Shown piece after piece: positions 6,338 to 9,182 of a stretch of DNA of 16,413 bases. This DNA is from Promethearchaeota archaeon (GTDB lineage: Archaea; Asgardarchaeota; Thorarchaeia; Thorarchaeales; Thorarchaeaceae), in the NCBI GenBank assembly GCA_027031765.1, contig JALVPN010000213.1, forward strand, positions 1 to 16,413. The letters are read 5' to 3'. The translations under genes and the position numbers were made by a program. Numbering within the stretch: position 1 is the first letter of the stretch; the number at the start of each line of letters is the position of its first letter. The notes beneath the pieces are model-generated. The model was not told where the DNA came from and made no database searches. It worked only from the letters and a program-made list of their open reading frames with translations.

Positions 6338-6346
6338 TCACCTCCT
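6338..6346 (-). promoter_or_regulatory. Strong RBS (AGGAGGTGA) overlapping the upstream stop codon
   Basis: Minus strand reads TAC TAG GAGGTGA cgacgag TTG, so the stop of 6345..9182 overlaps the SD of the next gene. Suggests translational coupling. Confidence 0.8.
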
Positions 6347-9182
6347 AGTAGTCCACGGTGCTCCCACCCACCTCAAGCTGGGCCATGAGCACTGCTGCCT
6401 CCTTGAAGGCATTCTCAATGTCGCTCTTCACGTCTGCTGTGTCCACCACAGAGATATACTGGCCCTGGGGCACGTTCTCGCACACTGACTGGAGCAACTC
6501 CTCAAAGGTCATCCTCTCACCGGTGGTCGGAGATATGACCTTCTTGTCGACCGGCATCCGGAGTTCCTCGCCGACCCCGATTATGATTAGGAAGACATCG
6601 AGGTGCCGGTTCCTGACGAAGTTCTCAACCGTCCGGCGGTTCCGCTTCTTCTGGCGGTCGCGCTCCGTGAAGATCCCCTCAAGGTAGTCGAGAGAGTACT
6701 TCTCTGACGAGTTGTCCTGGCCATCGGTCAGCGCAATTATCCAGCGGTGCTCACTGGACTCAAGGCTGTCCAGCTGTTCCAAGGCGTGGCCCAGGGCATC
6801 ATAGAATGCCGTAGCGCCATTTGGCCGACGCAGGCCGTCCAGGGCCCGCCATATCGGGTTCTCACGTGGGTCGTCATACTCGCCTCTACGTGTGAGCGGC
6901 AGGACCTCCTGGTATCTGTCGTTAAATATAGTAATCCCGACCTCGTCCTGAGGGTTCACCTTTGAGTCAAGGATTTCCTGCGCCCCGCGGATTGCTGCGA
7001 GGATTCTGCGCTGTGCATTCATGCTCCCGGAGTAGTCAATCACAAAGACGACGCTCTTCTTGTACTGGATTGAGCGGTACAGACGTTCGGCCTCGCGGCG
7101 GACTTCATGGCTCGGTTCGTCCAGCATGTCGAGGACATCCGCGAGCTCGCGCATTGCGAGGACGACCAGTGGATACTCCTCGGTCAGATTGCCGAGGCGC
7201 ATGCACTCACGGAACGAGTGTTCAGCATCACGCCACTGGCCCTTGGCCACGAACAGCTCGCCCATGTGGAAGTGGATGTATGCAAGGGAACGGTTGTTGT
7301 CGTCGGCCTCAGCAATCCGTTTCGCCTCTTCAAAGTGTGACAGGGCCTCGCTGTGACGCCCCTGTCGCATGAGTATAAGGCCAGTGGCATCATGACGTCT
7401 TGCAAGGCCGCCGGTGTTATTGAGCGACATGTCTATCGCCTGGGCGTCCTCAAGGAGCTTCAGGGCCTCGTCGTACTCATTTAGGTCCATCTTCACAAGT
7501 GCCATGTTGTGGTACACCGACGCAATCCTGAGCATGGCATCACGCTCGTCGCGGCCCTCTTCCTTTGACTGCTGGAGCAGACGCTGGGCAATCTCCAGTG
7601 CACGCTCATAGTACTTCAGAGCGTTGCCATGGTCACCACGCTGGCGGTACACGTTGCCGATGTTGAGACACATCGTCTGCTGGCCGACCTCGATACCAAG
7701 CCGTTCGCTGATCTCCAGCAGGTTCATGTAGTTGGACAGCGCACGGTTGAGGTCCCCCCGGACGAAAGCGGCGTTCCCAAAGCGGCAGGCCTCTTGGAAG
7801 CTCAACAGTGCATCGACCGTGCTGCCGACCTCCTCAAACATGGCGCCGGTGGCCGTGACCCCTCTGGTGAAGTCCTGACGCGACATCTTCTGCACCATGT
7901 GCGTCATCTCGCGGATCGGTTCGACAACGGCACGGGCCCTGCGGAACGAGACCCCTGCCACCACGGTACCGACGACCACAAGCACGGCACCAAGTGCCAT
8001 CAACAAGGTGCTAGTGCCCCGGACGACCTGTTGGAGCATCGCCTGTGCCGGCGCCACCACCTCGTCTGCAGGCACCACCACCACAAGTACGAAGCCGGTG
8101 CTTTCCACGCGGGACGAGGTCAGTAGCCAGCGCTCGCCACCCTTGGTGAAGTACGTCTGGCTGCTGTTCTGGGACAGGAGCGTTGGGAGGGCTGTCGAGA
8201 ACTGGTTGCGTCCCTCGGTGTCCGTAGGTGCGAACTCAAGGTCAAGGATACTCTGGCTCTCGGTCGTGAAGTATGGGTGTGCAACGACGTGGCCGCTCCC
8301 GTCCAGCAGATATGCGTACCCGCGGTCAAGCACTTGGACATCAAGGACTTTGGAGTTGACCGTAGCCAGTGTGACATCAGCAGAGACGACACCAATCATG
8401 GTGCCGTTGTCAAAGTAGACGGGACGCCCCATAGAGATGACAAGACCGGTCGACGGGTCGCCATAGGGGGGTGTGAAAGCAATACTCGTGTTGTCTACTG
8501 CGATGGACGCTGCATTGAGATACCAGTTCTCAGACGACGGGTCATAGTCACCATCGTCGCTGAGGAAGTAGTCGAGCTTGTCGAATGGGTAGTTCCTCAT
8601 GAGGTGGCTCGGACAGAGAGAGGGGTTGAATGTCATGTACAGCCAGATGTAGTCCGAGTTGGCGTCGTGGAGGGCCCTGAACACGTTGTCCATATTGCTG
8701 GAGACGTTCAGGAAGTACTCGGTGCGCGTGTCAAGTGTGAACGGGTCACCAGGTGTCGGGTACCTGTCACGTGGCATGTAGTAGCAGCTGACATCGAAGG
8801 AGATGTAGTCGGAGGAGTAGGAACTCTCACTATGGAGACCGGGCACCACCTTGGCACTGTGGGCGTACTCCAGGAACGGGTCCCAGAAGTAGCTGTACTG
8901 CGGTGTGGCATTCAGCCGTCCGTTGAAGAGCGCCTCACAGTAGTCCTCCATCACGTACACGCCGTCATAGTAGCTCTGGATGCGCTCATCAATGAACGAG
9001 GCCACATCATCCGACACACGCCTCAGATTTGCGACCTCCTCGTCCTCAAGGGCCGACGCCGCTAGGGCTGCGTTGTCATTTGACACGCCAAGGATGGTCC
9101 ATGTCGACACAGCGGAAATCACAATGATTGGGATGAGCGTTACAGTCGTGAATGCGAGCACAATCCGCCGGGAAATCCTCAT
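6345..9182 (-). CDS. Membrane receptor TM-dCache-TM-HAMP-TPR repeats-vWA (intact MIDAS)
   Basis: 945 aa. TM aa7-33, Cache aa~35-385 (WLYMTF, NYP, ENWY, PPYGD, ISMGRPV, SADV, GYAYLLD..GHVVAHP), TM aa~392-412, HAMP aa~413-466. About 5-6 TPRs at aa~467-705 (NIGNVYRQRGDHGNALKYYERALEI etc.). vWA from aa709 with D716-Y-S-G-S720, T791 (GATAFYDAL) and D820 (LTDG). GGGGTGGTG RBS. Confidence 0.9.
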   Translation of the reverse strand: MRISRRIVLAFTTVTLIPIIVISAVSTWTILGVSNDNAALAASALEDEEVANLRRVSDDVASFIDERIQSYYDGVYVMEDYCEALFNGRLNATPQYSYFWDPFLEYAHSAKVVPGLHSESSYSSDYISFDVSCYYMPRDRYPTPGDPFTLDTRTEYFLNVSSNMDNVFRALHDANSDYIWLYMTFNPSLCPSHLMRNYPFDKLDYFLSDDGDYDPSSENWYLNAASIAVDNTSIAFTPPYGDPSTGLVISMGRPVYFDNGTMIGVVSADVTLATVNSKVLDVQVLDRGYAYLLDGSGHVVAHPYFTTESQSILDLEFAPTDTEGRNQFSTALPTLLSQNSSQTYFTKGGERWLLTSSRVESTGFVLVVVVPADEVVAPAQAMLQQVVRGTSTLLMALGAVLVVVGTVVAGVSFRRARAVVEPIREMTHMVQKMSRQDFTRGVTATGAMFEEVGSTVDALLSFQEACRFGNAAFVRGDLNRALSNYMNLLEISERLGIEVGQQTMCLNIGNVYRQRGDHGNALKYYERALEIAQRLLQQSKEEGRDERDAMLRIASVYHNMALVKMDLNEYDEALKLLEDAQAIDMSLNNTGGLARRHDATGLILMRQGRHSEALSHFEEAKRIAEADDNNRSLAYIHFHMGELFVAKGQWRDAEHSFRECMRLGNLTEEYPLVVLAMRELADVLDMLDEPSHEVRREAERLYRSIQYKKSVVFVIDYSGSMNAQRRILAAIRGAQEILDSKVNPQDEVGITIFNDRYQEVLPLTRRGEYDDPRENPIWRALDGLRRPNGATAFYDALGHALEQLDSLESSEHRWIIALTDGQDNSSEKYSLDYLEGIFTERDRQKKRNRRTVENFVRNRHLDVFLIIIGVGEELRMPVDKKVISPTTGERMTFEELLQSVCENVPQGQYISVVDTADVKSDIENAFKEAAVLMAQLEVGGSTVDY

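Follow-up and report, generated by a model that had tools for sequence, protein, structure and literature searches.

A stretch of 16,413 nucleotides from a Promethearchaeota archaeon of the Thorarchaeaceae (contig JALVPN010000213.1 of assembly GCA_027031765.1), called the window here, carries a gene for a transmembrane (TM) receptor in which a dCache_1 sensor and a HAMP domain are followed by a tetratricopeptide repeat (TPR) array and a von Willebrand factor A (vWA) domain with a complete metal ion-dependent adhesion site (MIDAS). The window is a contig of ~59% GC whose near named homologs are nearly all from Candidatus Thorarchaeota; the source genome comprises 2.95 Mb in 229 contigs and is 95% complete. 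The single sequencing run that contains the window DNA is a hydrothermal-vent metagenome, probably its source, and no RNA run is listed. The receptor gene, referred to below as the long gene, is one of four that lie head to tail on the minus strand:

9253..10689, minus strand: gene for a propeller protein, the candidate cytoplasmic partner, 478 residues from a GTG start (ortholog alignment, model, Pfam)
6345..9182, minus strand: long receptor gene, 945 residues, TM-dCache_1-TM-HAMP-TPR-vWA (open reading frame, Pfam, orthologs)
4864..6330, minus strand: short receptor gene, 488 residues, TM-dCache_1-TM-HAMP (Pfam, 29% identity to the long sensor)
3003..4856, minus strand: speA, biosynthetic pyridoxal phosphate (PLP)-dependent arginine decarboxylase (NCBIfam PRK05354, TIGR01273, Pfam Orn_Arg_deC_N)

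The long gene is an intact open reading frame (ORF) that translates into 945 residues and is single-copy in its own genome. From the N-terminus to the C-terminus, its product is divided as follows:

9093..9161, minus strand: first transmembrane segment, TM1, residues ~8-30, preceded by a basic N-terminus predicted to be cytoplasmic (Kyte-Doolittle scan, K/R counts)
8019..9080, minus strand: predicted extracellular dCache_1 sensor, residues ~35-388 (Pfam dCache_1, MCP-like_PDC_1)
8376..8546, minus strand: membrane-distal ligand-pocket motif Y213, E218, W220, Y221, Y240, D269 (phmmer alignment to PctA 5ltx)
7947..8012, minus strand: second transmembrane segment, TM2, residues ~391-412, then RRAR (hydropathy)
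7761..7946, minus strand: HAMP, residues ~413-474, with the helix AS1, a connector and the helix AS2, closing in an F-G-N kink (sub-threshold Pfam match, relatives, model)
7131..7751, minus strand: TPR array, residues ~478-684, ~5.5 repeats (Pfam, model helices, Foldseek)
7068..7130, minus strand: linker helix from the TPR array to the vWA domain, residues 685-705, with the motif D685, S691-H692, R695, E699, R703 (complex prediction, invariance in Thorarchaeota)
6369..7061, minus strand: vWA domain, residues ~708-938 (Pfam VWA_2/VWA, model, Foldseek)
7023..7037, minus strand: MIDAS motif DxSxS (D716-Y-S-G-S720), completed by T791 at 6810-6812 and D820 at 6723-6725

Pfam recognizes the sensor as dCache_1 (PF02743, residues 208-369; 67.6 bits versus a cut-off of 45) between the two TM segments, with an additional MCP-like_PDC_1 match to residues 171-275, and the best sequence matches of the sensor among solved structures are CACHD1, the chemoreceptor 6iop and PctA. 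The hydrophobic segments fall at residues ~8-30 and 391-412; three K/R residues stand within the first seven, and RRAR comes directly after TM2. Because the N-terminus is basic and TM2 is followed by RRAR, the positive-inside rule, applied to the hydropathy profile, puts dCache outside the cell and the whole of HAMP-TPR-vWA (after residue 412) in the predicted cytoplasm. An extracellular vWA domain, the opposite arrangement, is at odds with the charge pattern and with where HAMP lies, and is rejected.

By sequence, HAMP is the least certain domain of the long receptor: PF00672 matches residues 400-480 at 17.4 bits (E 0.006; cut-off 25) and covers AS1 only. HAMP is matched at the equivalent place in 21 of 42 aligned relatives, with a best E of 1e-13. 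Residues 405-945 were modelled with AlphaFold on an 81-sequence alignment (predicted local distance difference test, pLDDT, 84.2); in this model, the HAMP region consists of a helix at 406-434, a loop and a helix at 450-474. AS2 terminates at a kink formed by F468, G469 and N470, which are conserved in the Thorarchaeota orthologs, and 11 helices (~5.5 TPRs and the linker helix) follow immediately, leading into the vWA domain. TPR families match densely and above threshold over residues ~500-690 (TPR_12, 84 bits; TPR_2, 69 bits; TPR_1, 67 bits), and Foldseek aligns this part with TPR domains that bind peptides, those of LGN/Pins and kinesin light chain.

The vWA domain is identified by VWA_2 (residues 711-822; 47.5 bits versus a cut-off of 27) and by VWA (PF00092; 30.4 bits versus 23.8), which together span residues 711-826. 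A sequence search against solved structures gave only marginal matches (ITIH4, E 0.046) and a fold search was therefore used; Foldseek retrieves the vWA domains of ITIH4 (TM-score 0.77 by target), TFIIH p44, CMG2 and BatB. The MIDAS is complete, with D716, S718, S720, T791 and D820, and is invariant in 40 Thorarchaeota orthologs. Among 42 relatives at 19-41% identity, D716, S718, T791 and D820 are invariant and S720 is present in at least 90%, and all 71 of 71 syntenic orthologs, drawn from all Asgard lineages sampled, keep the site. Judged by this pattern, the MIDAS is under strong purifying selection as a putative metal site.

After HAMP, Pfam and NCBIfam reveal no MCPsignal, HisKA/HATPase, GGDEF/EAL or guanylate-cyclase domain, only low partial matches over the TM/HAMP or TPR parts. 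The output side of the long receptor is without any enzymatic or second-messenger domain and is made of TPR and vWA only. A first-pass annotation of the locus had described a TM-dCache-TM-HAMP-TPR-vWA receptor in which ~5-6 TPRs directly continue the HAMP helix and a MIDAS is formed by DYSGS (716-720), T791 and D820. The architecture is borne out by Pfam, hydropathy and the model, with HAMP sub-threshold in the window protein; the model has ~5.5 TPRs starting immediately after the AS2 kink, and the MIDAS residues are exactly where they had been placed, conserved in the sets of 40, 42 and 71 sequences. The annotation had also considered a vWA domain outside the cell, contrary to which the charge pattern places it inside.

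The architecture is shared by more than 120 orthologs of 928-965 residues, which align with the long receptor over 99-100% of its length at 55-63% identity and have an identical Pfam set. Orthologs are encoded on the closed Thorarchaeota chromosomes CP070761 and CP070658 and in the complete genome of Lokiarchaeum ossiferum (CP104013). Because so many full-length orthologs exist, some of them in closed genomes, a chimeric assembly joining HAMP to TPR, against which the first-pass annotation had cautioned, is excluded and the gene is real. An exhaustive search of 50%-identity representatives adds dozens more proteins of ~860-940 residues that align in one stretch from dCache to vWA at 23-43% identity, and in ten of the ten that were checked the architecture matches that of the long receptor. 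Matches at E 1e-20 or better occur in 129 of 400 Asgard genomes, among them 70 of the 85 from the window's own family. A pattern scan of one genome per species across 185,579 prokaryote species returns 80 loci, all labelled as Asgard or unclassified archaeal metagenome-assembled genomes (MAGs), except one labelled Bathyarchaeia; the lineages named among them are Thor-, Heimdall-, Hod-, Hermod- and Loki-, Promethearchaeum and Sigynarchaeum. By shape, the whole HAMP-TPR-vWA arm is found in the ESM Atlas only in a Thorarchaeota cluster; a feature search of the same resource with residues 405-945 gave no usable match. The single trace in fungi or protists is a weak Atlas match, a Chytridiomycota cluster with HAMP and dCache that scores 0.80.

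Relatives at 22% identity, each adjoined by a dCache-only gene, lie on contigs labelled as giant-virus MAGs (GVMAG in IMG/VR; "viral metagenome" in UniRef). At these loci (L085, L086, L089 and L090) the dCache-only gene stands upstream of the long gene, the opposite of the Asgard order, with photolyase, UvrD-helicase and leucine-rich repeat genes around the pair; in L089 and L090 the two genes occupy 6285-7796(+) and 8001-10652(+). Literature searches found no publication that describes the TM-dCache-TM-HAMP-TPR-vWA architecture, in keeping with the earlier view that this combination is not a described receptor class. The concern that it might prove both widespread and characterized is half justified: it is widespread, present in 129 of 400 Asgard genomes and on giant-virus MAG contigs, but no paper characterizing it was found. 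In sum, this is a genuine system with a broad distribution in Asgard archaea, and literature searches turned up no characterization of it.

The long gene does not stand alone: a truncated dCache-HAMP paralog always accompanies it. The short gene begins with a TTG codon 14 nt past the long gene's stop, behind a Shine-Dalgarno-like site, GGAGGTGA, that overlaps this stop codon. Its 488-residue product contains TM, dCache_1, TM and HAMP and ends a few residues after HAMP; it shares 29% identity with the long protein's sensor half, and the genome encodes no homolog besides these two. The long gene precedes the short one in all Asgard loci fetched, i.e., in every complete locus examined, and the two are separated by 2-16 nt (median 13) in 54 of the 54 loci in which both ORFs are complete, which represent several Asgard classes.

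In another Asgard family, a sensor-less variant of the long protein (575 residues) has the composition TM-short loop-TM-HAMP-TPR-vWA, without dCache, and the gene after it encodes a 154-residue TM-TM-HAMP protein with the same long HAMP connector. Because the sensor-less long form adjoins a TM-TM-HAMP protein, dCache appears to have been lost jointly by both partners while their pairing was kept. No variant has lost HAMP, which is recognized even in the sensor-less ones (E 3e-9). The sensor-less module consists of genes for the 575-residue protein, the 154-residue protein and a 610-residue propeller protein, in this order, and was located at two loci:

L083, 4015-5739, 3551-4012 and 1555-3399, minus strand: sensor-less variant
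L084, 3528-5255, 5255-5719 and 5867-7699, plus strand: sensor-less variant

The sensor-less module is preceded by a gene for a 244-residue multi-pass membrane protein that has no Pfam match and might be a replacement sensor.

HAMP is a dimeric four-helix bundle. Since HAMP is dimeric and the short protein ends without an output domain, a long-short heterodimer with a single TPR-vWA arm is the simplest reading, and we infer that this is probably the signalling unit. The C-terminal tail of the short subunit was considered as a ligand of the MIDAS or of the TPR groove and rejected, as it is short and variable, acidic in Thor lineages and basic in Heimdall and Loki.

A further component is the propeller protein. 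Its start is fixed at GTG by ortholog alignment, behind a TTTATATA box at 10726-10733, and in Thorarchaeota it is conserved as strongly as the receptor (52-59% identity). In its model (pLDDT 80), 24 strands form a six-blade propeller, which is followed by a long helix, a C4 zinc ribbon and two winged-helix domains. Pfam matches to propeller, zinc-ribbon and PCI families are all sub-threshold (PCI E 0.008), and fold searches return generic propellers only (WD40, NHL, BBS1/2/9, G-beta), with no specific relative of the zinc-ribbon/winged-helix part. The neighbours in other lineages match the same sub-threshold Pfam propeller models, and several have a Cys-rich C-terminus. In a profile search, more than 20 non-Thor genomes proved to have a propeller gene on the receptor's contig, no more than a few kb away. 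The gene is upstream of the receptor in Thor lineages, convergent and downstream in Heimdallarchaeota and Hodarchaeum, and co-directional and downstream in Lokiarchaeum ossiferum and in the sensor-less variant; because the adjacency survives three different rearrangements, a functional link between receptor and propeller is indicated.

Complex prediction was carried out with the receptor arm (residues 460-945, 81-row alignment) and the propeller protein (478 residues, 40-row alignment). The interface score ipSAE is 0.68 for this pair and 0.00 for the best of three controls; the mark set for this score is reached by 58 of 80 solved complexes and by 2 of 110 mismatched pairs, counts that apply only roughly to a prediction run with own alignments. 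The runs share at least 61% of contacts, and the partner is modelled with a pLDDT of at least 83. The prediction supports binding of the propeller protein to the TPR-vWA arm. The predicted contacts on the receptor side (685, 688, 690, 692, 695-696, 698-699 and 703) map to the linker helix between TPR and vWA, off the MIDAS face; those on the propeller side (32-33, 35, 54-55, 75-76, 78, 119, 141, 163, 185 and 209) recur ~20 residues apart over residues 32-209, a spacing consistent with one propeller face. The interface comprises the most conserved, invariant positions of both proteins: D685, H692, R695, E699 and R703, invariant in Thor orthologs of the receptor, and Y35, Y54, S75 and R78 of the propeller, of which Y35 and Y54 are invariant even in Heimdall and Loki propellers.

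The linker motif H692/R695/E699 and the propeller gene co-occur across the loci. Loci with the motif have the gene in 54 of 57 cases (the three exceptions span 4-6 kb only) and loci without the motif lack it in 12 of 13; conversely, the motif is present at 54 of 55 propeller-bearing loci and missing from 12 of 15 that have no propeller gene. As the genomes are related, these counts reduce to perhaps five lineages with both features versus four or five with neither, and the direction of the co-occurrence is all the same consistent. The two winged-helix domains hint that the protein held in this way may act on DNA or be the base of a larger assembly. The first-pass annotation had envisaged an output by interaction through the MIDAS; the absence of an enzyme domain and a conserved candidate partner with a supportive complex prediction favour interaction as the output, but the predicted contact lies on the linker helix (685-703), not on the MIDAS.

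The sensor pocket can be compared with that of characterized receptors. Amino-acid sensors of the dCache_1AA type are defined by the motif Y121, R126, W128, Y144 and D173 in PctA numbering (Gumerov et al., 2022, PMC8915833). Aligned to PctA (5ltx) by phmmer, the long subunit has Y213, E218, W220, Y240 and D269 in its pocket, with E218 at the R126 position, and the short subunit has F, E, W, Y and D at the equivalent positions. The window receptor departs from the amino-acid motif in that Arg is replaced by Glu; Loki-type orthologs carry the full motif. Across 71 long and 62 short orthologs, the D173 position is 100% and the Y144 position ~90-98% conserved. The R126 position is E in 53 of the 71 long subunits and E/D in 53 of the 62 short ones, and in most sampled lineages both pockets carry the same residue class there. 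Arg occupies it only in the Loki-type and in one Heimdall-type set of pairs, together with the full amino-acid motif.

The identity of this residue is linked to the neighbouring speA gene. In the window, the speA product matches NCBIfam PRK05354 with E 2.7e-96 (323.6 bits, under the curated cut-off of 369), and its probable start, M14, lies 7 nt after the stop of the short gene. At 55 of 82 loci speA adjoins the receptor pair, and its placement takes two forms: Thorarchaeota and some Heimdall-like lineages have it behind the short gene, and in others (Hod, Heimdall) it lies upstream of the long gene in divergent orientation. It adjoins 43 loci in which the R126 position is acidic, the other 9 such loci having flanks too short to judge, and none of the 6 loci with Arg, 3 of which have flanks of at least 2.5 kb. 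Because the amine-binding Asp is kept and the carboxylate clamp is replaced by an acid, the expected ligand would have a second positive group and no carboxylate; together with the gene context, the pocket residues point to agmatine (the SpeA product), a diamine or a polyamine in the speA-linked lineages. Agmatine and polyamines are required by archaea for tRNA-Ile agmatidine and hypusine. At one Heimdall-like locus (L054), two PLP-dependent decarboxylase genes follow the receptor pair, one encoding a SpeA-like protein of 598 residues (10215-12011(+)) and the other a second Orn/DAP/Arg decarboxylase of 460 residues (12130-13512(+)), and a 727-residue TPR-only protein is encoded upstream.

Taken jointly, these observations can be read as a long-short heterodimer that senses an amine (speA-linked lineages) or an amino acid (Loki-type) and relays the signal from HAMP to the TPR array, so that the arm changes the proteins it holds, a reading to which we give somewhat better than even chances. 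Of its elements, the anatomy of the domains, the conserved MIDAS, the coupling of the two receptor genes and their conserved surroundings are directly observed, and the docking site is a model prediction; heterodimer, amine, switch and downstream effect are interpretation. The long subunit would pair with its truncated paralog through the TM and HAMP helices, and the four-helix HAMP bundle would carry one TPR-vWA arm. Both dCache pockets, which keep the amino-group residues (Y240, D269) and have Glu/Asp for the carboxylate Arg, would bind a carboxylate-free amine; in Loki-type lineages, an extracellular amino acid would be sensed instead. Movement of HAMP induced by the ligand would be relayed through a rigid F-G-N junction into the TPR superhelix. 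The enzyme-free arm would act by protein binding, with a face of the propeller on the helix between the last TPR and vWA, and the vWA MIDAS would bind a further acidic ligand. The outcome would be the signal-dependent holding or release, at the membrane, of the winged-helix protein or of a complex assembled around it; we infer ligand-driven on/off switching of the interaction and its downstream effect. The fuller claim, that this is an undescribed form of enzyme-free transmembrane signalling in which a heterodimer uses a single arm to hold an adaptor on the linker helix and a metal-dependent ligand on the MIDAS, both changed by a ligand outside the cell, is tentative, and we would sooner expect some part of it to fail.

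Several observations weigh against this reading. The long receptor's own HAMP scores under the Pfam threshold. The correlations come from related genomes, mostly Thorarchaeota, and represent ~5-8 independent lineages. The receptor pair occurs with neither a propeller neighbour nor the linker motif in families f8, f10, f13 and f14 and at loci L054-56, L061-66 and L076-77; because several lineages have the pair without either, the propeller protein is not a universal partner. The predicted interface omits the MIDAS, the most conserved feature of the receptor, and the main output contact may be another one. Binding of a helix or peptide by a propeller face is a common mode, and part of the score may derive from solved complexes of this kind; we know of no homologous complex for the receptor arm and the propeller protein. 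In the sensor, speA adjacency may reflect co-regulation only. The amine-sensor motif dCache_1AM of Cerna-Vargas et al. (2023) includes a small insertion and aromatic-box residues and was found in that study, among archaea, in Halobacteriota only; this motif was not found in the pocket as far as could be checked against a motif given as a figure only. Finally, homodimers of each subunit are possible.

Homodimers are the basis of one rival explanation, according to which the two genes encode independent receptors, the short protein either sensing separately or acting as a decoy, by titrating ligand or by forming inactive dimers. The short form does have a complete sensor, TM segments and HAMP and could dimerize alone, and its unconserved C-terminal tail offers no evident docking motif; however, a protein that ends after HAMP would lack its own output, in 54 of 54 loci from different classes only 2-16 nt lie between the genes, dCache was lost jointly in the sensor-less variant and both pockets mostly share their residue class at the R126 position, all of which makes this explanation decidedly improbable. 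A constitutive role is harder to dismiss. The arm could be a membrane anchor or scaffold that permanently tethers the propeller protein and a MIDAS ligand, with dCache and HAMP tuning assembly or serving a structural purpose and no switch at all: the predicted interface is a fixed helix outside HAMP and is modelled confidently without ligand, TPR and vWA domains are typical static scaffolds (as are the Foldseek matches), and the whole cytoplasmic module is kept in the sensor-less variants. Yet HAMP is retained in every variant, even where the sensor is gone, and in both dCache domains the pocket is conserved and its residues shift with gene context, as expected of a working sensor, so that we consider a scaffold without a switch unlikely.

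It is also conceivable that SpeA itself is the target, bound by the MIDAS-vWA or by the TPR groove, and that external agmatine or polyamine switches its activity or location post-translationally, with no transcription step. Such control would account for speA adjacency in 55 of 82 loci, maintained through rearrangement, and for the acidic pocket residues that accompany it, and would supply the MIDAS with the ligand that is otherwise unassigned. Against this, the MIDAS is intact with no speA nearby in the Loki-type pairs, in the sensor-less variants and in the giant-virus copies; because the site persists where speA is not adjacent, SpeA is not the general MIDAS ligand, and direct control of SpeA appears improbable. 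The switchable heterodimer is the preferred reading.

Parts of the system resemble known ones. PctA, PctB and PctC (5ltx, 5lt9) and other dCache_1-HAMP receptors have the same N-terminal plan of TM, dCache_1, TM and HAMP, and the PctA pocket residues Y121, W128, Y129, Y144 and D173 are kept in the family. By contrast with PctA-type receptors, HAMP is followed not by an MCP signalling domain, kinase, cyclase or phosphatase but by TPR and vWA, the carboxylate-binding R126 of PctA is a Glu in the long receptor, and the long receptor is paired with a truncated paralog. ArnA and ArnB of Sulfolobus acidocaldarius, a zinc-finger-FHA protein and a cytoplasmic vWA protein that regulate the archaellum (PMC5007285), provide a precedent for a cytoplasmic vWA domain acting in archaeal signalling by protein binding, with a zinc-finger partner encoded adjacent. 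Unlike the long receptor, ArnB is soluble, controlled by Ser/Thr phosphorylation and devoid of sensor, TM, HAMP and TPR, and its partner uses FHA, not a propeller; the likeness is one of vWA fold and mode of action.

The Bat proteins (BatA/BatB with vWA and BatC with TPR, encoded with a MoxR ATPase) similarly combine a membrane-anchored vWA domain with TPR, and the TPR part of the long receptor has a weak NCBIfam BatC match (E 1e-6, far below cut-off), as its vWA domain has a Foldseek match to BatB (3ibs). Bat proteins differ from the long receptor in having neither dCache nor HAMP, and no MoxR AAA+ or DUF58 gene is found among the window ORFs or in the gene tables of the related loci L001 and L002, the rest of the genome not having been searched. 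alpha2delta and CACHD1 also contain vWA and dCache_1 families in one protein, and CACHD1 (8s7c) ranks first among the solved structures matched by the sensor sequence (E 1.3e-9), with bacterial chemoreceptors only marginally behind. In alpha2delta/CACHD1, the vWA domain is inserted in dCache and both are outside the cell (PMC8915833), whereas the vWA domain of the long receptor is predicted to be cytoplasmic, behind TM, HAMP and TPR. The pairing of a propeller protein and a MIDAS vWA protein that are encoded side by side and predicted to bind recalls the integrin head, in which the seven-blade FG-GAP propeller of the alpha subunit is docked on the MIDAS-bearing beta-I domain. An integrin-like head is rejected, as the propeller has six blades (24 strands), FG-GAP_3 matches it at a sub-threshold E of 0.098, the contacts at 685-703 are outside vWA and all parts are predicted to be cytoplasmic. 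Overall, the sensor half is that of an ordinary dCache_1-HAMP receptor; the output half and the subunit composition are without a described counterpart among receptors.

The surroundings of the module include the following genes:

10735..11838, plus strand: histone-deacetylase-family gene, divergent, in Thor lineages only (Pfam Hist_deacetyl E 1e-72)
2-859, minus strand: radical SAM protein of the Rv2578c/PA0069 family, cut by the window end
14253-15071 and 15247-15990, plus strand: NrdG-type anaerobic ribonucleotide reductase activase and proteasome alpha subunit, the latter named by eye from its translation, without a domain scan

The histone-deacetylase-family gene is present in 44 of 82 loci. 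Together with larE, this divergent gene belongs to the further neighbours of the module in Thorarchaeota. If it starts at the ATG at 10735, the 5' end of its ORF is overlapped by the propeller gene's TTTATATA box (region 10726-10746); either the starts or promoters of the two genes overlap or the deacetylase start lies further downstream. Two small paralogous winged-helix (MarR-like) ORFs, at 1176-1463(+) (95 residues) and 1790-2092(+) (100 residues), share the motif P..I A...GLAPRTV..AL..L...KLC...PNF.DMR.PLYH, and comparable small MarR-like genes stand near larE in L001. At 12074-13480(+), 3 kb upstream of the module, is a gene for a cytoplasmic PAS-PAS histidine kinase of 468 residues, with no response regulator alongside it in the window; similar PAS kinases are found in 12 of 82 loci, including near the module in L001.

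The output domains known from prokaryotic transmembrane sensors are kinases, nucleotide cyclases or phosphodiesterases, phosphatases and the CheA-scaffolding domain of methyl-accepting chemotaxis proteins (MCPs). The long receptor family ends in protein-binding domains only and has a truncated twin subunit and a dedicated soluble partner alongside. The module occurs widely in Asgard archaea, to which eukaryotes are most closely related, and the cultured Lokiarchaeum ossiferum (L073) has the trio of receptor pair and propeller, which makes the proposal directly testable. We know of very few archaeal receptors with a known signal; the Arg to Glu/Asp change in the pocket, which tracks speA adjacency, is a concrete ligand hypothesis (agmatine or polyamines). 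If the proposal is true, receptor-adaptor signalling in the closest prokaryotic relatives of eukaryotes, and in giant viruses, would rely on propeller, solenoid and vWA domains in place of phosphotransfer or second messengers.

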